Of a stretch of DNA of 64,000 nucleotides, positions 6,864 to 54,650 are shown piece after piece. The stretch comes from Octopus vulgaris. Its lineage: Eukaryota. The stretch's first letter is position 1. Each line of letters begins with the position of its first letter. The stretch spans positions 26,536,001-26,600,000 of the forward strand of contig OX597821.1 in the NCBI GenBank assembly GCA_951406725.2. The letters are read 5' to 3'. The translations under genes and the position numbers were made by a program. The notes under the pieces are model-generated. The model ran no database searches. It was not told the DNA's origin and was given only the letters and a program-made list of their open reading frames with translations.

Positions 6864-8915
6864 TTACTTGCTGCTCTCTTTCTCTTGGTGTATTATAGAT
6901 TACTGTATCTAGTGGTAATACAAATTAAAATTTTCAAAACCATGATTATTTTTAATCTCTTCTCAATCTCCCATCGGAGGAGGATTTTGTAGGTATTTTT
7001 GGTAAAATTGCATCCAGTAGCTATCTCGAGTATTTTGTTGAGTGCTGTGTTTTTTGCAGCGTGTTATTAAATCTCTAAGATGCCGCCCAAACGCCCTACA
7101 CTTTCTAAGGCTTCTGGCAGGGAACCTAAGCGCCAGAAAAAGGTTATGACGCTCCGTGAGAAGGTATAGCTGCTGTATATTTTCCGGGAAAGTTAAAGTT
7201 ATGCTGCAGTAGATCGCTATTATGTTGTCAATGAAAACACCATACTCTATATAAAGAAGAATGTGGTGGCGATCAGGACTACCGTAGCAGTAAGTTTCTA
7301 TGAAAGTGCCAAAAAAGATAACAATAGTGAGAAATAAGCACTTCATTAGGATGGAATCTGCCTTGGCATTGTGGATCAAGCACTGGAAGAAGGAAAAATC
7401 CCATTGGATGGTAACATCATTCGCGAGAAAGCGCTGAAATTATACCAGCAGTTCGACAGAAGAAACGGAGCAGAAGGCACCGAAGAACCGTAACCAAGAC
7501 CAATGACAGCACCGGAGCCCGAAGATTTTCAAGCCAGCAAGGAATGGTTTGATAATTTTCAGAAACGATTTACAATAAAGTGCGTTTCCTTGCATGGAGA
7601 GACAGCATCAGCCAACGAAGAAACCACTGAGAAGTACCTCGAGACCTTCAAGCAGATCATCGAGGACCAGGGATACAAGCCGGAACAGGTTTTCAATATG
7701 GACGAAACTGGCTTGTTCTGGAGGAAGATACATTCCAGAACGTATGTCATGAAGGACCAAGCCAGAGTCCCAGGATTTAAGGCACAGAAGGACAGAGTAA
7801 CGCTAATTATGTGTGGCTATGCTGCTGGCTTCATGATGAAACCAGGATTTATCTACAAGTCCGCGAATCCGAGGGCCTTCCAAAATAAGAATAAAAAATC
7901 TGCTGTCTGTCCACTGAATGCACATTCCCAAGGCCTGGATTACCAAAAGTCTAACTTTGAATTGGTCCCACCAATGCGTCATCCCTGAAGACAAGGAATG
8001 CCTCCAAAACGTATGCATGGAATTCAAGGTGTGGCTTGTTATGGATAATGCTGGTGATCACTCTTTCGATTTGAATCACGAGTGAGTCCAAGTCAAGTTC
8101 CTGCCTGCCAAAACCACCTTCCACATCCAGCCTATGGATCAGGGCGTGATCCATGCATTCAAAGCATTTTGCACTCGGAAATCTCCAACATTTTGAGGAC
8201 GCAACGGAATCAAACGAGAATTTCAAGTTAAAGGAGTACTGCCGTAACTTTACGATCGCAACGTGCCTGTTAGTCATCCACGCCGCCCTTAAAGACATGA
8301 AAAAAGAAACTCCAATCGAATGCTGGAAGATGTGGCCAGAGTGTATGCCGGACTACGAGAACTGCTCACCTGAAGATATTCGGTATGAGGCTGTCTACAA
8401 TACATTGAAACTGGCAAAGGTACTTGGTGGCGAACGTTTTGAGGACATCACGCAAGATGAGGTCAACGATCTCATCGATGCCCACTCTGAAACCCGGACG
8501 GACGAAGATTTGTTGGAGTTAATGAGGTATGCCAGTGAAGATGAGAAGGAAGTACCAGTTCCAGAGAAATAGGAGGATGAAGAGGGGCCTGGCAATCGAT
8601 GGTCTGTCCGACCGTTTCAGGACAGCAAAAGAATTGCGAGGGAAGACGTAAGCATAGGATCCCTATATGCTTCGGTCCCTCCAATTTAAAAAAAAATGCC
8701 ATCGATGCTGCCATGCAGATATATAAAACTCTCCTCACCACCACGAAGAAACAAGAACAGCAACTTCCCATCACAATGTTTCTCAAGACCACGAAGAAGG
8801 CCTTCCACGAAGATACGACACCTACTAAAACACCTGAAGAGCTTTAAATCTTCTTTGGTGAGCAGTCATTACCTCCATTATTTTCATCATCATCGTCGTA
8901 AATCAATATTATTCA
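6190..8915 (+). mobile_element. Tigger/pogo (TIGD1-like) DNA transposon with disrupted transposase (ATG 7080 to about 8847)
   Basis: MPPKRP..RQKKVMTLREKV, FQASKEWFDNF, QVFNMDETGLFW, FKAQKDRVTL, MDNAGDH, IQPMDQGVI. Multiple frameshifts and stops. Confidence 0.9.
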
Positions 8916-9699: not shown

Positions 9700-10653
9700 A
9701 TTGCTAGGATGATCCGGTTCTTGACTGAAGATCGAAGGCTTCGAATGTCCCGTCCGTGTTTTTTGTATCGTCTTCTAAATGTTTTACGTTCATGTCCCAG
9801 TTTGTATTTTTCTACATATAATATATATAGCGGCGTCCGTACCCTCGTTGGCCTTATGTAAGTACATATTCCTGTAAATTTGGTACGACTCTACATACTG
9901 TCTCTCTCTCCTACATTTCTCTACCTTTCACACTTTTCACTCTACTTTGATCTGTCCCCTTCTCTCTCTCTCTCTCTCTCTCTCTACTTCTCCTCCTTTT
10001 CTCTTTTCTCGCCTCTGATTCTTTGGTCTACTCTTCCCCCCACTCTCTCACAATTCTCTATCTTTCTCACTTTGCACTCACTAGCCCTCCTTGGCACGCA
10101 CTCTTTCTTCTCCTCTCTTTAATTCCTTCTTTCTCTCTCTTCTCCCCCCCTTGTTGCCTTCGTCCCTCTTTCTCTCTCTCTTTGTTTCCTTTGCCCCCTT
10201 TCTTTTCTCTCTCTTCTCTCACGTGACCGCTGGTCAAAATCAGCCTTTTGGCCTCCGACCACTGCCGTGAGAACATCTGTTGCCTTCGTCTGCCGATAAA
10301 GGCATTATTCCAAATACGCCAGCTAAACTTGTTGTACTATTTATTAGTCGTAAGACACCCACTGTTTTTGTCCTGTTTTTATCATTATTGTTTTTTGTAT
10401 TTTATATTCGTGTGGCATCGTCTGTTTTTCTGTCCCTGTTTCGTATACATTCGATCCTTCTTTCAAGAAATCTAATGCTCGTAGATTAGTTTTTCCTTGG
10501 GGCTGGCCGGATCGGAGCGATCTCAAGATTAATCAGCTGAAATTGCTAGGATGATCCGGTTCTTGACTGAAGATTGAAGGCTTCGAATGTCCCGTCCGTG
10601 TTTTTTGTATCGTCTTCTAAATGTTTTAGTTCATGTCCCAGTTTGTATTTTTC

Positions 10654-10660
<7 letters not shown>
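9700..10660 (+). mobile_element. Non-coding element with ~125-bp terminal direct repeats and CT-rich interior (retrozyme/non-autonomous PLE-like)
   Basis: 9700-9828 is repeated at 10542-10670. No ORF. Ends in (TA)n. Carries the re-wired hammerhead-like motif at 10501-10595. Confidence 0.7.
10501..10595 (+). ncRNA. Candidate topologically rearranged hammerhead-like RNA (copy A)
   Basis: Helices GGCTGG/TCAGCT, CCGGATC/GATCCGG, AGCGAT/ATTGCT and TCAAGA/TCTTGA around GAAA, AUC and CUGAAGA. Covaries with 47524-47620. Confidence 0.55.
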
Positions 10661-10730
<70 letters not shown>

Positions 10731-10913: not shown

Positions 10914-10932
10914 GTAATAATAATAATAATAA

Positions 10933-11625
10933 CGAACCATCAAGGCCAATAAACCAGATATCGAACCATCAAGGCCAATAAACCAGATACCGAACCATCA
11001 AGGCCAATAAACCAGATATCGAACCATCAAGGCCAATAAACCAGATACCGAACCATCAAGGCCAATAAACCAGATATTGTTGTGACGAACCATCAAGGCC
11101 AATAAACCAGATATTGTTGTGACGAACCATCAAGTCCAATAAACCAGATATTGTTGTGAAAGACCAAAACAATAAAGTTTGCTTATTGATCGACATGAGC
11201 ATCCCCTGTGATCATAATATCTCAGCGAAAGAGTTTGACAAGCTCAGAAAATATAAAGACCTACTCATTGAAATTGAGAAAATGTGGCATCTCAAGTCGG
11301 TTACAATACCAGTGATCGTAGGAGCACTAGGAATGATCAAGAAGGGAACCGAAAATTATATGAGAATGATCCCTGGCTTACCATCCCTGCAAGAAGTGCA
11401 AAAGATTGTCTTAACTGGTACATCACACGTATTGAGAAGAGCATTGTCGATGTGAGAACTGTTGCTGCTCATGTATTTTAATTTAACTTTAAAAAAAAAA
11501 AAAAATGAACGAACTACTGAGTTTGGTTTAATGGCCTACCAATGTATGCTATGAGTTTCTTTGCCCTAGGAGTCGGGAAGACACTCGGCAAGAAATGGAA
11601 GCAAATTTGAAAGAAGAAAAAAAAA

Positions 11626-12720: not shown

Positions 12721-13003
12721 GAGCTACAGACATACATATATACAGACACACACATGTGTGTATATTCAGTTGATTGCAAAGAGGGTCGAAGTGTACTGTG
12801 GTGGTGGTGAATTCATGATTTACTACCTTGGCCATATATACCAAACGGGGCCAATCACATGATAAAAATCGCTGAGATTTCTCTTGGTAGATTAGACTAT
12901 TATTTGCACTTTCTTAATATGATATAGAAATGTAAAAAACTACTATATTATGCAACTATGTACTTAGGAGCATATATGTTAAATATGTCACTTTTCTTTG
13001 CAG

Positions 13004-14471
13004 GAAAGAGATGTACGATGGAGCTGTGAAGTTCGCAAAGGCTTTGATGAAACTAGGCATCGAAAAAGGAGACAAGATTGCATTTTGTGTTCCTAACTGT
13101 GTAGAATGGATGAGCTACGATATTGGAATCATGATGACTGGAGCATATTCTATGCGATTAATGTTTGGATTAGCAGATATGAAATCTATTATAAAAGGAT
13201 GTAGTGCTGTTGTATTTGGATCCAGATCTACTTGGGACAGTTTCTTATCCATTGCACAAATAAGCGATAATGGAAAAGTATCTTGCGAAGCGTGTCCAGA
13301 TTTGAGATTTGCCATTGATGTATCCAATACACATGGGCCAGCCAATGCTTTATCTGCTGCTAAATTGATGGCAGAAGTAAGCGACGATGTCGCAGTTGAG
13401 TTTCCTTACATTGACCCAGAAGATATTGCATCCATCAATCAGACTTCCGGAAGCACTGGTGTGCCTAAATGTATTTGTCACAGCCATTTTAATTACTTAA
13501 ACTTGCCAGATTCAGATTTTAAGGAGACTTCTTATTTTACTTCATTTAATAGTCGTCCAATGGGATATATTGGAGGATATCCTTTGTCTGTGCTAACCAG
13601 AGGATCAGTGCATGTCGGTGGAGACGTAGAAATGTTGAATGATCCGAAGAACCTCGATTTTGTTATAAAGATATGGCAGAGTGAAGAATGCAACTTAGTT
13701 GGTATTTCGCCACAGGATTTGAAACGACTTAGCGATCGCGAATTCCGAGTTAATATGGTAATATCAGGTGGAGATGTGATTACCCGAGATGAAATAGAAC
13801 ATACGTTTAAAATTGCAGATAGTTTCTTAGTTGCTTATGGAAGTACTGAAGCTTTCCTCATATCTCTTCGAATTTTTACCCCAGAAAATATTTCAGAACA
13901 TCGACAAGGAATGCTCGGGCGACCACCTGCAGGAACAGAAATCAAAATTGTTGACGAGGAGAAGAGAGTTGTGGATATTGGAAAGACAGGCTATTTGTAT
14001 TTTCGAAGTAAATGGGTAACAAAAACGCATCTGGATGGTACTTCATGCTTAGAAAATGGTTGGTATCCAACATCAGATATTTGTTACTTAACTGAAGATG
14101 GTGACCTCATAATGGTTGGAAGAAGCACAGATTTTATTAAGAAGTGTACAGTAAAGCTATCTATTAAACAAATTGAAGATTACATCGGACGTCATCCGAG
14201 TGTAGATGCTGTGGTTGTTGTGCCAATCCCTGACCAGGCGGTAGGAGAACGTGTATGCGCGTGCGTTACCGTTCGGCCAAATCACGAGTTCAATGAAGAA
14301 GAATTGAAAAAGTTTTGTACGGATTCAATGCCGGATCCAGATAACTTTGATTGTGTATCTATGCATCCTGATTACATTTTATATTTTCCCTCATTTCCAC
14401 TTTTGGCTAGTGGCAAAATTGACAAAAAGGCTATAGCAAGTTTGGCCCTTAAGAAAATAAAAAAAATGTAG
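13004..14471 (+). CDS. AMP-forming acyl-CoA synthetase (ANL superfamily, ACSF2/FadD-like), paralog 1, large terminal coding exon
   Basis: Intact 486-aa ORF with P-loop TSGSTGVPK, YGSTE, TSD, GRSTDFIK and SGKIDK. Splice acceptor cttttctttgcag ends at 13003, same phase as paralog 2. AATAAA at 14499. First exon not found in the window. Confidence 0.9.
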
Positions 14472-40999: not shown

Positions 41000-42710
<1,711 letters not shown>

Positions 42711-43718: not shown

Positions 43719-44166
43719 ATATTTCGGAATGGTCATTTTGCCAGTTTAGCCAATAAAAACACACGCACTATATATTTGGTGTTACTTTGCTTCAGTGTTA
43801 TTTATTTTTTACATTAATCTTAATCTTATTTCGGCCAGAGTTCTTTCGTCACACTCCTGTGACCGCATCAGTGGTCCTTTGTTTTCTTCTCACTTATTTG
43901 TGTCTCTCCTTACTAACCGTCAGCCATTTTGTATTGTATTTGTATTAGTAAGGAGAGACACAAATAAGTGAGAAGAAAACAAAGGACCACTGATGCGGTC
44001 ACAGGAGTGTGACGAAAGAACTCTGGCCGAAATAAGATTAAGATTAATGTAAAAAATAAATAACACTGAATAAATAAATAACACTGAATAAGTAATACCA
44101 AATATATAGTGCGTGTGTTTTTATTGGCTAAACTGGCAAAATGACCATTCCGAAATATAACAATAT
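43711..44166. repeat. Near-perfect inverted repeat (arms 43711-43916 and 43945-44166) of a hammerhead-bearing PLE LTR
   Basis: 28-bp spacer. Each arm has CCA-CTGATGC-GGTCAC..GTGAC-GAAA-GAAC-TC-TGG. Flanked by (TA)n. Confidence 0.9.
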
Positions 44167-46459: not shown

Positions 46460-47735
46460 CTGTTTGCCGTTGTCGTGCTATCGTCCTTGTTTTCCTCATG
46501 TTGTTTTGACAGTTTCCGTTTGTTGTGTTCATTCTGTTCTACCTTTGATATATTTATGCAGCGCTACGTACAACTCTCAACCTCTTTTCCTCGCCATTTT
46601 CCCTTTTTCCTCCCTCCTCTCTCTCACTCGGTCTCTTTTTTTTTCTCTCTGTCTCTCCCCCTCGTTCCTCAGTCCATCTGATTTCATTTCTCTCTCTCAT
46701 ATTCCTTAATCCTTCCCCACCTCTTATTCTGCTATCTCTTTTGCATTTCTTCCTCACCTCCCTTGTTCCTTTTCTCTCTCTCTCTTCTCTCCATCTCATT
46801 CTTTGGTCCCTTTAATTTTTTTCCCCTTTCTCCTATTCTTTAGTCCCTCTGCCCTCTTCAAATCCTCCTCCCCCCTATCACATTATCGCTGTTCGGTTCA
46901 GGCATTGTCATCCGTTTTCGGCTGGCCCCCTTTGAGGCTGGTCGTGTCTGCTGTGTCCTGTCGCCCGGTCTCTTAAGATTTTTTTCCATTTCCATTTTCC
47001 TTGCGCTAGCTTACTACACACATCTGATGGTCGAAAGACCCTGTTTGTTTTCTTTTATTTTCGTTGTAATTGTATATTTATTCTCTTTTCTCGTATAGCT
47101 GAAAAGCGTTTGTCCATTGTATATGTATAATTCTATTTCATTCTTCCAGTAGTCGAAAGACCCTTTCTGTTACTCTTTTACTTGTTTCAGTCATTTGACT
47201 GCGGCCACGCTGGAGACCGCCTTTAGTCGAGTAAATCGACCCCAGGACTTATTGTTTGTAATCCTAGTAAACACACCAGCATTGGTTGTCAAGCGATGTT
47301 GGCGGTCAAACACAGACACACAAACACACAAACACGCACACACATATATACATATATACGACGGGCTTCTTTCAGTTTCCATCTAGTAAATCCACTCACA
47401 AGGCTTTGGTCAGCCCGAGTCTATAGTAGAAGACACTAGCCCAAGGTGCCACGCAGTGGGATTTTCGTTTATGTATACTCGTTTGCCTTTTCCAGAGGCT
47501 CAACGCTTTAGCTTAAGTCCCTGGCCCAGCCGGATTCGAGTAGTATCGGAGATAAGTGGGCGAAACTACGAAGACTTTCCGGATTCTGACTGAAGAGGCA
47601 ATTGCTTGCGAATGACCCGTGTATCTTGTTTTGTTCTGTTTGCCGTTGTCGTGCTATCGTCCTTTTTTCTCGCATGTGTTTTTATGGTTTCCGTTTGTTG
47701 TGATCTTTCTTTTCTACCTTTGATTTATGTATATA
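46460..47735 (+). mobile_element. Non-coding element with ~90-bp diverged terminal direct repeats, CT-rich interior and nested SINE (47172-47461, minus)
   Basis: 46460-46550 is repeated at 47636-47730. Same layout as 9700-10660. Confidence 0.65.
47524..47620 (+). ncRNA. Candidate topologically rearranged hammerhead-like RNA (copy B)
   Basis: Helices GCCCA/TGGGC, CCGGA/TCCGG, GTAGT/ACTAC and TCGGAG/TTCTGA around GAAA, GUA and CUGAAGA. Confidence 0.55.
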
Positions 47736-47983
47736 TAATATGTTAGTTTAACACGTCATAAACACACTTTAGACAGCCTGAAATAACTCTTAAAGTAATT
47801 AAACTAATGCTTTTAAACCGCTCGTTTTGTACTAAACAGTAACTTTATGAGAGGAGAATAATGTGTATCTGTGTATTTTGTTTAAAGTTAAGATAATAAT
47901 TTCAACTATGAAATGGATTATACTTATAATTTGTTTTCTGTTTTTGTATGATTTTGGAAACGCGAACATCACAGTTTGTGAAA

Positions 47984-48129
47984 ATGGCTAGTTACATCCA
48001 CACAGTAGGAGTTGCGGAAAATTCGTATGACACGATTCCTGAAAGATTGCGTATTTGGGCTGAAAAGTATCCGGACAAAACAGCAGTCGTTTCGTATGAT
48101 GCAGAATACAAGAGACACCAAATAACCTT
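47984..48129 (+). CDS. Acyl-CoA synthetase paralog 2, first coding exon
   Basis: aaaATGG start (an in-frame ATG also lies at 47948). MASYIH..TIPERLRIWAEKYPDKTAVV..QIT is a typical ANL N-terminus. Donor GTAAGT at 48130; phase 2 joins in frame to 53165 (QIT-L-KEMHD). Confidence 0.85.
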
Positions 48130-48229
48130 GTAAGTATTATTGAAATATATATGTTATTAGTCTCATTTCTGTGGAATAGAAAATTTAATTTGTTGAATTA
48201 ATATTGTGGGCCGTACTTTGGTCTTATAC

Positions 48230-52600: not shown

Positions 52601-53164
52601 TATTAAAATTCTGTTGCAGAAAGGAATATTAAAATTGAAGGTTCACTTGTCTTTTTGCAGTTTATATAAATCTTTAATCTTTTGTCTTCTTTCAGTCACT
52701 TGACTGCGGCCATACTGGAGCATCACCTTAAAGGGTTTTAGTCGAACAAATCAACACTAGGACATATTTTTTTTAACCTAGTACTTATTATATCGGTCTT
52801 TTTTGCCGAACCGCTATGCTATGGGGACATAAACAGACCAGCACCGGTTGTCAAGCGGCGGTGGGGGTCTTCGTAAAATATCACACAGGACGTGGTGCCG
52901 CACCATTTTGTGTCACGTAAACGATGGTGTTCATAAAGATCTTCTCGATATGTAACAGTGTGAGTGTCAATCCAGGCATTAACCGCACCGAGCTCGATGT
53001 CTCGGATAACCTGCAAAGGTGAAGAGCACAAGAAGTTTTCTCAAAATCAAGGCAATGAATACATAGCGATCGCTTAATTGAAGATGTCAATGTGAGTTCT
53101 ATGTTATGTGATTAATACTGATTTTAAGAAGCATACATACTCATAACGTTGTTTGTCTTTGCAG

Positions 53165-54650
53165 AAAAGAAATGCACGATGGAGCTGTGAAGTTCGCAAA
53201 GGCTTTGATGAAACTAGGCATTAAAAAAGGAGACAAGATTGCATTTTGTGTTCCTAACTGTGTGGAATGGATGAGCTACGATATTGGAATCATGATGACT
53301 GGAGCATATTCTATGAGATTAATGTTTGGATTAGCAGATATAAAATCTGTTATAGAAGGTTGTAGTGCCGTAGTATTTGGTTCCAAATCTATTTGGGACA
53401 GTTTCTTATCCATTGCACAAATAAACAATAATGGAAAAGTATCTTGCGAAGCGTGTCCCGATTTGAGGTTTGCCATTGATGTGTCCAATTCTCACAGACC
53501 AGCCAATGCTTTATCTGCTGCTAAATTGATGGCAGAAGTAAGTGACGATGACGAGGTTGAGTTTCCTTACATTGACCCCGAAGATATTGCAGCAATCAAT
53601 CAGACTTCAGGAACCACAGGTGTACCTAAACGTATATGTCACAGCCATTTCAACTTTATAAATCTACCAGATAAGTTTGTTAGTGGCACTAGTATTTCTA
53701 CTTTTGATGTATTATTTTCCAGTCGACCAATGGGATATATTGGAGGATATCCGTTGCTGCTCTTAACCAAGGGAGCCAAACATGTCACTGGAGATGTAGA
53801 AATGTTGAACGATACGAAGAATTTCGATTTTGTAGTAAATTTATGGCAGCAAGAGAAATGTACTATTGTGGGTGTTGCACCACAGGACTTGAAACGACTT
53901 GGCAATCGTGGGTTTCGTGTAAAGACGGTACTATCCGGTGGAGATATGCTTACACATGATGCAATAGAGTATTCTTTTAAAATTGCAGATGAATTTGGAA
54001 TTATTTATGGAGCCACTGAAGCTTTGATTATATCCAGTAGATTTTTTACTCCAGAAAACATGTCACAACATCGACAAGGAATGCTCGGGCGACCACTTGA
54101 AGGAACAGAAATCAAAATTGTTGACGAGGAGAAGAGGGTTGTGGATATTGGAAAGACAGGCTATTTATATTTTCGAAGTAAGTGGACGACGAAAACATTT
54201 CTTGATGGCACCTCGTGTCTAGAAAAAGGATGGTATTCAACGTCAGATATTGGTTACTTAACTAAAGATGGTGACATCATAATGATTGGAAGAAGTACAG
54301 ATTTTATCAAAAAGTGTACGGTAAAGTTATCGATTAAACTTATTGAAGATTATGTCGGACGTCAACCGAACGTAGATGCTGTGGTTGTTGTACCAATCCC
54401 TGACGAGGAGGTTGGTGAACGTGTGTGCGCATGTGTTACCATTCGACCAAATCACGAGTTCAATGAAGAAGAATTGAAAAAGTTTTGTACGGAAACAATG
54501 CCACAACCAAAGAGCTTTGATTGTGTATCGATGCACCCTGATTACATTTTATATTTTCCTTCATTTCCACTTTTGGCTAGTGGTAAGTTTGACAGGAAAG
54601 CTATAAAAACTTTGGCTCTTAAAAAAGTAAAAGATTCTAAAAATAATTAA
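53165..54650 (+). CDS. AMP-forming acyl-CoA synthetase (ACSF2/FadD-like), paralog 2, second coding exon (spliced protein about 543 aa)
   Basis: Intact ORF with TSGTTGVPK, YGATE, TSD, GRSTDFIK and SGKFDR. Acceptor tttgtctttgcag ends at 53164. Intron 48130-53164. Confidence 0.92.

Follow-up and report, generated by a model that had tools for sequence, protein, structure and literature searches.

Does a short repeat in the octopus genome carry a hammerhead-type ribozyme with its parts strung in reverse order, and if so, what closes a catalytic strand that has been cut in two? The question is raised by the window analyzed here, a stretch of 64,000 nucleotides of Octopus vulgaris contig OX597821.1, in which a first-pass annotation had placed the conserved pieces of a hammerhead in two repeats.

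Results

Two copies of a split core

The four helices of that annotation (a to d), GAAA, the NUH triplet and CUGAAGA were all found at the positions claimed, and the four helices pair in both copies. The hammerhead parts stand in the correct local register and in the reverse (non-circular) order, with CUGANGA apart from stem II, as had been proposed. The start of the motif had to be moved, since it lies about 50 nt 5' of the earlier coordinates, at the 5' arm of a further helix, P4 (10447-10460 in copy A, 47476-47487 in copy B).

Copy A
10447..10460, plus strand, P4 5' arm; pairs with 10576-10590 through 8 + 5 Watson-Crick pairs
10464..10499, plus strand, P5 hairpin; ends one base 5' of stem II
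10501-06/10533-38, plus strand, stem II (helix a), pairing checked; G10.1 is 10501, displaced from CUGANGA
10507-13/10553-59, plus strand, helix b, linking stems I and II; 5' block 10507..10515
G10515 and A10516, plus strand, positions 2n and 1n of a predicted kink-turn
10516-21/10542-47, plus strand, stem III (helix c); U16.1 is 10521
C10522, plus strand, H17; cleavage predicted on its 3' side, by analogy
10523-28/10561-66, plus strand, stem I (helix d); the site block is 10516..10528
10533..10547, plus strand, G block: stem II 3' strand, G12-A13-A14-A15.1 (10539-42) and stem III strand
10547..10559, plus strand, predicted kink-turn 3-nt bulge (10547-49) and GA (10550-51), with the helix b 3' strand
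10561..10573, plus strand, stem I strand and, from 10567, CUGAAGA (C3-U4-G5-A6-N7-G8-A9)
10574..10595, plus strand, P4 3' arm, comprising the earlier "hairpin" and GAAUG; the conserved YCCG comes next

Copy B
47476-87, plus strand, P4 5' arm, with one mismatch
47493-47523, plus strand, P5 hairpin, partly decayed
47524..47596, plus strand, span of the split core, with GAAA at 47562 and CUGAAGA at 47590
47524-28/47557-61, plus strand, stem II
47530-34/47578-82, plus strand, helix b
47540-44/47565-69, plus strand, stem III
A47545, plus strand, H17; cleavage predicted on its 3' side, by analogy
47546-51/47584-89, plus strand, stem I
47597..47620, plus strand, P4 3' arm, with 5 Watson-Crick pairs directly 3' of A9

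The whole fold occupies about 145 nt of one unit, and the partner of the P4 3' strand lies about 120 nt upstream of it. Judged from their letters, both window copies are decayed and may be weaker than their families. Specifically, position 11.1 of copy A (10538) is U where the family has C, so that 10.1-11.1 is a G-U pair; stem I of copy B contains two G-U pairs that are G-C in the family consensus, and P4 and P5 of copy B carry mismatches. Pseudoknot-free folding was unremarkable (z -1.8 and -0.3).

Covariation and conservation of the core

Copies A and B had been described as separate, divergent repeats; they proved instead to be homologous subfamilies with common flanks. A total of 306 distinct copies were compared, of which 228 were clustered and 78 left out for a truncated or divergent 5' part. 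Clusters with fewer than three members were left out of the consensus sets, which gave 11 consensuses (families A-F) and, with family G, 12.

Over these 12 consensuses, pairing reached 0.99 in stem I for cognate arms against 0.69 for arms swapped between families, 0.97 against 0.68 in stem II, 1.0 against 0.74 in stem III and 0.95 against 0.64 in helix b, and for all four helices none of 20,000 permutations attained the cognate value; these permutation counts are not probabilities, because the subfamilies are kin. The covariation proposed for helices a, c and d was thereby confirmed by the swapped-arm and permutation comparisons. Helix b, which is the contact joining stems I and II, had been thought conserved rather than covarying, and covaries as well once more families are included. 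When 40 real copies were aligned with MAFFT, two-sided changes appeared in 18 of 21 pairs, and 82.7% of cells pair compared with 66.5% in shuffles and at most 50.8% in slid registers, counts that are lowered because MAFFT misaligned family G, whose six rows were kept. Stems I, II and III were the top three of an unbiased stem scan, and RNAalifold picked the displaced stem II unprompted, this being the only stem that it recovered. A canonical stem II immediately 3' of CUGANGA was rejected, only 0-2 bp being possible there in 17 of 17 cluster consensuses; the partner strand of stem II lies 5' of the site block.

The catalytic letters follow the same pattern. All 12 consensuses have CUGANGA directly 3' of stem I, G12-A13-A14 between stems II and III, an A15.1-U16.1 pair and an H17 that is never G. 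The invariance of CUGANGA and GAAA is partly built in, because the search patterns required both. The G10.1-C11.1 pair, U16.1, H17 and N7 were outside the search pattern for the 11 A-F consensuses; the first two are kept in 12 of 12, H17 is C or A in 12 of 12, and N7 varies. Among contigs from four sequencing runs, differences above 5% fell on H17, N7, the linkers, helices b and III, position 10538 and the flanks, and none above 5% fell on a, d, d', GAAA or CUGA-GA. In family A contigs G10509>A accounts for most of the depth and its compensating change, C10557>T, for only a minority, so that b contains a mismatch. On this comparative evidence the feature is real and under family-level selection, with the catalytic signature of a hammerhead.

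Two further predicted helices and a kink-turn signature

The sequence after CUGANGA had been read as a 3' hairpin, and its 22 nt do not fold in 7 of the 12 consensuses. The hairpin was rejected: the strand, including GAAUG, is the 3' arm of P4, with its partner upstream. The possibility that GAAUG serves as the G block of another hammerhead was likewise rejected, as no stem III partner was seen by eye and GAAUG belongs to the P4 arm.

When 26 upstream bases were searched for a flank helix, cognate pairs scored no better than swapped ones (-6.6 vs -7.0 kcal/mol, permutation 0.76). With 62 upstream bases, a P5 hairpin abutting stem II and P4 were both predicted in 9 of 12 consensuses. The remaining three did not form both: family D has P4 without P5, P4 is weak in family G, and no P4 was found within 62 nt for consensus A2. 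P4 joins sequence 5' of P5 to sequence 3' of A9, so that two helices would plug into the core at A9/G10.1. The arms of P5 are cognate-specific (22 of 20,000 permutations); those of P4 are weakly so in this genome (450 of 20,000), since much of P4 is conserved.

A kink-turn consists of a canonical stem, a 3-nt bulge, tandem G-A/A-G pairs and a second stem, and kink-turns are protein-binding motifs. Its signature lies between helix b and stem III in 11 of 12 consensuses, and its G-A letters were invariant in the unbiased stem scan. In structural terms, the signature may offer a ring-closing route in cis. A circular, dimeric or trans partner, earlier considered as one possible requirement, is not called for, as the parts lie within about 145 nt and the predicted P4 closes the gap in cis.

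Carrier elements and copy number

The three copies of the motif in the window belong to two elements:

9700..10670, plus strand, family A element: a 5'-truncated partial repeat (9700-9828) and one full unit of about 842 nt, followed by (TA)n
9700..9753, plus strand, third copy of the motif, truncated to its 3' half: III', b', I', CUGAAGA at 9725 and the P4 3' arm
46460..47732, plus strand, older family B element; its partial repeat 46460-46557 matches 47636-47732

The family B element is broken by a different repeat at about 47166-47461. Across the 2.8-Gb genome, the pattern GAAA..CUGAHGA..GAAUGWYCCG gave 5,805 exact matches, compared with 1 for the reversed pattern, and patterns that largely excluded families A and B gave 574 further copies compared with 0 control matches; 90 of the 574 were retrieved for analysis. 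Family A is young (2,504 first-look candidates; 40 scored copies 99-100% identical) and family B older (234 candidates; other copies 83-90% identical).

The family A unit is non-coding, its longest stop-to-stop frame measuring 91 aa; the 5' ends of its copies vary, and the 3' end, at about 10670 and leading into (TA)n, is fixed. The start of the unit was directly preceded by its own 3' end, a partial tandem, in 30 of 30 loci, which were chosen by the first 133 bases of the unit and include the window itself and four loci of one array. The longest array holds 8 units at a spacing of about 830 nt. Partial tandems occur likewise in family B, family D is also found in arrays, and in families A and B some 100-150 nt separate the fold from the fixed 3' end. 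The same partial-tandem layout is known from Penelope-like elements (PLEs) and metazoan retrozymes.

No reverse transcriptase (RT) ORF attached to families A-F was found by tblastn of 203 loci, where matches occurred only in three (L045, L064 and L070) and were not tied to the units. One family D copy lies about 1 kb 5' of a Naiad RT fragment (L437), which may be an independent insertion. As for 5' junctions, 8 of the 306 copies start at -1 to +1 of the predicted site (6 without duplicates), with about 1 per neighboring position, which amounts at most to a slight enrichment. A separate observation concerns four copies (L122, L135, L254 and L285) whose truncated 5' end abuts an inverted segment of the motif itself; in L254 and L285 this junction falls at the predicted cleavage site.

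The fold in Naiad elements

Naiads are PLEs with (TA)n targets and a partial tandem, pseudo-LTR layout (PMC8557442), as in the window families. Insertion in (TA)n, a fixed 3' end, 5' truncation and partial tandems are all present in the latter, and as this layout is common to other EN+ PLEs, it is not diagnostic of Naiad. Craig et al. (2021) reported no canonical hammerhead in Naiads and left "HHR_core" and "HHR_half_core" flags unexplained (PMC8557442). By eye, the split-core fold can be recognized in the 3' ends published for Naiad_Obim and Naiad_Ovul, and also in three supplementary entries that we read as coral Naiads and in two more; two entries read as nematode Naiads show a plain CSG hammerhead (PMC8557442 supplement). 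This inspection by eye covered 60 of 62 CTGATGA and 30 of 43 CTGAAGA places in that supplement.

One family of the present genome is near-identical to the published Naiad_Obim and Naiad_Ovul tails. The Naiad_Ovul-like tail gave 443 pattern matches in the genome compared with 0 in the control, and it matches 9 of the 30 Naiad RT loci of the genome. In one locus (L331), this tail, our family G, lies 3' of GIY-YIG and RT remnants on one strand. Naiad matches in the genome look broken, mostly with stops. An ORF with N-terminal GIY-YIG, CxC and C-terminal RT is absent from the window copies; a Naiad-type ORF is present for family G (L331) and for most motif-bearing metagenomic loci.

The fold was sought outside this genome in 80 Naiad-type metagenome loci with about 30-47% protein identity, 59 of which had at least 300 bases 3' of the match. 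A descriptor admitting all orders found 13 a-S-G-C, 2 C-a-S-G and 1 CSG among the 80 loci, all on the sense strand, and 0 a-S-G-C in five rounds of shuffling. A relaxed descriptor gave 14 matches (two of which have one motif sequence in common) with scores of 18-30, each on the sense strand and none within the ORF; shuffling yielded 4 matches among 3,200 locus-strands, the highest scoring 20. The 12 best metagenomic matches have a P5-like hairpin 5' of stem II and a cognate-specific P4 (1 of 20,000). Helix b spans 4-12 bp in the metagenomic matches, and the kink-turn is not evident by eye in most of them.

Two further loci (L393:3028 and L401:254) have the C-a-S-G order, with two hairpins between A9 and stem II by eye; from its sequence, this form is the closed-loop counterpart of the window fold. 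A third (L343:3480) is a plain CSG hammerhead in a Naiad tail. The a-S-G-C and C-a-S-G loci together indicate that A9/G10.1 is a recurrent insertion point, the window form being a permutation opened in P4. The CSG sequences of Eckert et al., which came from metagenomic DNA only, might themselves be Naiad tails. A viral collection contained no relative, and a word-indexed protein search gave no match. As a side observation, four of the loci (L341, L360, L365 and L373) have Naiad-type ORFs of about 1,300 aa, with about 400 extra residues after the RT.

Discussion

Comparison with known hammerheads and retrozymes

The first-pass annotation took the reverse order to be undescribed. This no longer holds for the order itself, which belongs to a class with types SGC, CSG and GCS (Eckert et al., 2023, PMC10085705), whereas a break at A9/G10.1 that takes up two inserted helices appeared in none of the papers searched. 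Types SGC and CSG cleave in vitro, and SGC ribozymes with similarly short links cleave co-transcriptionally (PMC10085705). Type SGC (HRIMA-1 and variants), CSG and GCS have the same circular strand order as the window fold, which also has the succession of site, GAAA and CUGANGA and the helix connecting stem I with stem II that characterize type SGC. In type SGC, however, the stem II strand comes directly after CUGANGA with at most 1-2 nt inserted (in SGC-1, as inspected by eye in its oligos, a single additional base separates A9 from stem II), while in the window fold the 5' strand of stem II and one strand of the joining helix have moved to the 5' end. Eckert et al. assumed that CUGANGA is inseparable from the adjacent strands of stems I and II ("block C"); the window fold splits this block, P4 and P5 enter at A9/G10.1, and the families carry a kink-turn signature. 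Types I, II and III have the C-G-S order around a pseudoknot-free three-way junction, whereas the window fold is S-G-C. In its strand order, therefore, the window fold is outside types I-III and, strictly, outside type SGC, and a-S-G-C is the circular order of Eckert et al. opened between A9 and G10.1.

As anticipated, the Rfam models gave no hammerhead match in the window (E up to 5), and they had none in 13 loci either (E up to 0.5). Our literature searches turned up neither the split-core topology nor any permuted hammerhead reported for Naiads; the novelty of P4 and P5 could be affected by Weinberg et al. (2015), which PMC13725137 cites for hammerheads that have additional helices.

Non-LTR (metazoan) retrozymes are, like the families described here, non-coding tandem repeats with a hammerhead; they are thought to be PLE-derived and copied via circles, with units of up to 972 bp (bioRxiv 10.64898/2026.07.22.740005). 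Their hammerheads are of type I and those of the present families are not, and since retrozyme searches use type I hammerheads, the split-core topology would be missed. The minimal type I hammerheads of PLEs occupy the same position, in the 3' repeat of the element, and cleavage and a circular template have been proposed for them (Cervera and de la Pena, 2014, PMC4209133). These motifs are tiny, conventional in order and probably dimeric, whereas the window fold is large, knotted and probably monomeric.

Proposed mechanism and alternatives

Taken together, the reading that we consider likely is that of a reverse-order hammerhead-type fold, with its strand opened at A9/G10.1 and, by prediction, bridged by two additional helices, which self-cleaves after C10522 or A47545, cuts a non-coding Penelope-like tandem transcript into units and probably circularizes them. 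First, P4 would stack on P5, crossing the stack of stem II and the core as in a four-way junction; with such stacking across the core, G12 would still cap G10.1-C11.1. Second, helix b would substitute for the contact of loop I with loop II, and the kink-turn would bend b back onto stem III, so that the ring closes in cis. Third, cleavage after C10522 or A47545, argued from hammerhead chemistry and the tested SGC and CSG forms (PMC10085705), would convert the tandem transcript into monomers. After two cuts the ends of the monomer would come together again by pairing in P4, stem II, helix b and stem III, about 30 base pairs in all, and ligation into a circle would thus be favored. A Penelope-like RT/GIY-YIG protein acting in trans might then use the AU-rich tail for priming and reverse-transcribe around the circle, as has been proposed (PMC4209133); such copying would leave the 3' end fixed, the 5' ends random and the tandems partial.

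The structure might instead be conserved but no longer, or only slowly, catalytic, and serve as a signal for the RT of the element (binding or template) or for a kink-turn protein of the L7Ae family. A place about 100-150 nt from the fixed 3' end in families A and B would suit such a role, kink-turns in general bind proteins, the 5' ends show no clear pile-up at the site, and the break at A9/10.1 could harm catalysis. Nevertheless, what has been kept is the catalytic pattern and not shape alone, since all 12 consensuses, and distant Naiads as well, have G10.1-C11.1, A15.1-U16.1, a free N7 and an H17 other than G, which makes this reading unlikely.

An active ribozyme could also assemble mainly across neighboring repeats or from two molecules, with cutting confined to tandems, as for the minimal PLE hammerheads. 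In this arrangement CUGANGA, I' and b' of one unit would combine with the following unit's stem II, site and GAAA, giving a C-a-S-G form with the remainder of the unit as the P4 loop. That reading gains from the arrays (up to 8 units, about 830-nt spacing), the natural C-a-S-G versions (L393 and L401), the proposal that minimal PLE hammerheads act as dimers (PMC4209133) and the strain that short links between stem III and helix b would put on a monomer (discussed in PMC10085705). Every part is nonetheless available within about 145 nt of a single unit, SGC ribozymes with similar links do cleave co-transcriptionally, and the kink-turn signature of the III'-b' linker (11 of 12) is meaningful only for a cis ring; we therefore judge assembly mainly across repeats to be improbable. 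Chance pairing in a repeat family, or covariation from shared descent alone, could draw on related subfamilies, short helices and the core words used for the search, yet the swapped-arm, slid-register and shuffle controls all fall short and Naiad loci at about 30-47% protein identity repeat the wiring although their helix sequences are unrelated, which leaves it a very slight probability.

Implications

Beyond the predicted self-cleavage, a wider interpretation is offered, with a probability slightly below even. The fold may be a fourth opening of the reverse-order hammerhead, enabled by two helices in the catalytic strand, and the missing Naiad ribozyme across animal phyla; it would be self-circularizing, its ends clamped by about 30 base pairs and joined by self-ligation, and the circular template would explain pseudo-LTRs and partial tandems. 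The split-core topology breaks the rule behind the six possible hammerhead permutations, namely that CUGANGA is inseparable from stem II (PMC10085705), and suggests that the core can accept two extra helices. Non-circular permutations, hitherto from metatranscriptomes, metagenomes and one bacterial candidate, now extend to thousands of copies in an animal genome. In addition, the half-core flags of Naiads (PMC8557442) would be explained, an apparent exception to the link between PLEs and hammerheads would be removed, and the question of whether PLEs are copied from circles would become directly testable. Because standard models miss the fold, genomic counts of ribozymes are probably too low. 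Furthermore, the new insertion site in the core may serve ribozyme switches.

Neighboring features in the window

The window also contains a young Penelope-like ORF, from which family A might obtain its RT; no split-core fold was present among the 3' ends of this element that were listed. The following features were recorded beside the two elements:

41116-42414, young Penelope-like ORF with a C-terminal GIY-YIG region and a CX4CXXC linker; the 150 matches scored have 95-100% identity
41031-41070, minus strand, 3' of this ORF, minimal type I hammerhead-like motif by eye, with one unpaired base in stem I; U3-A8 replaces C3-G8, a variant described in PMC4209133
4385-5263, minus strand, another Penelope-like fragment, decayed, containing a GIY-YIG domain (Pfam PF01541)
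7083-8800, decayed transposase of the DDE_1 type (Tigger/pogo-like), immediately 5' of the family A element
10929-11179, tandem array with a 29-37-nt unit, just 3' of copy A
12936-14471 and 53112-54650, two long frames, paralogous and AMP-binding (acyl-CoA synthetase-like), separated by about 40 kb, the first with a Pfam match
43791-44070, 126-nt inverted repeat without mismatches, its arms 28 nt apart
47980-48130 (approximate), probable upstream exon, with copy B about 300 nt 5' of it
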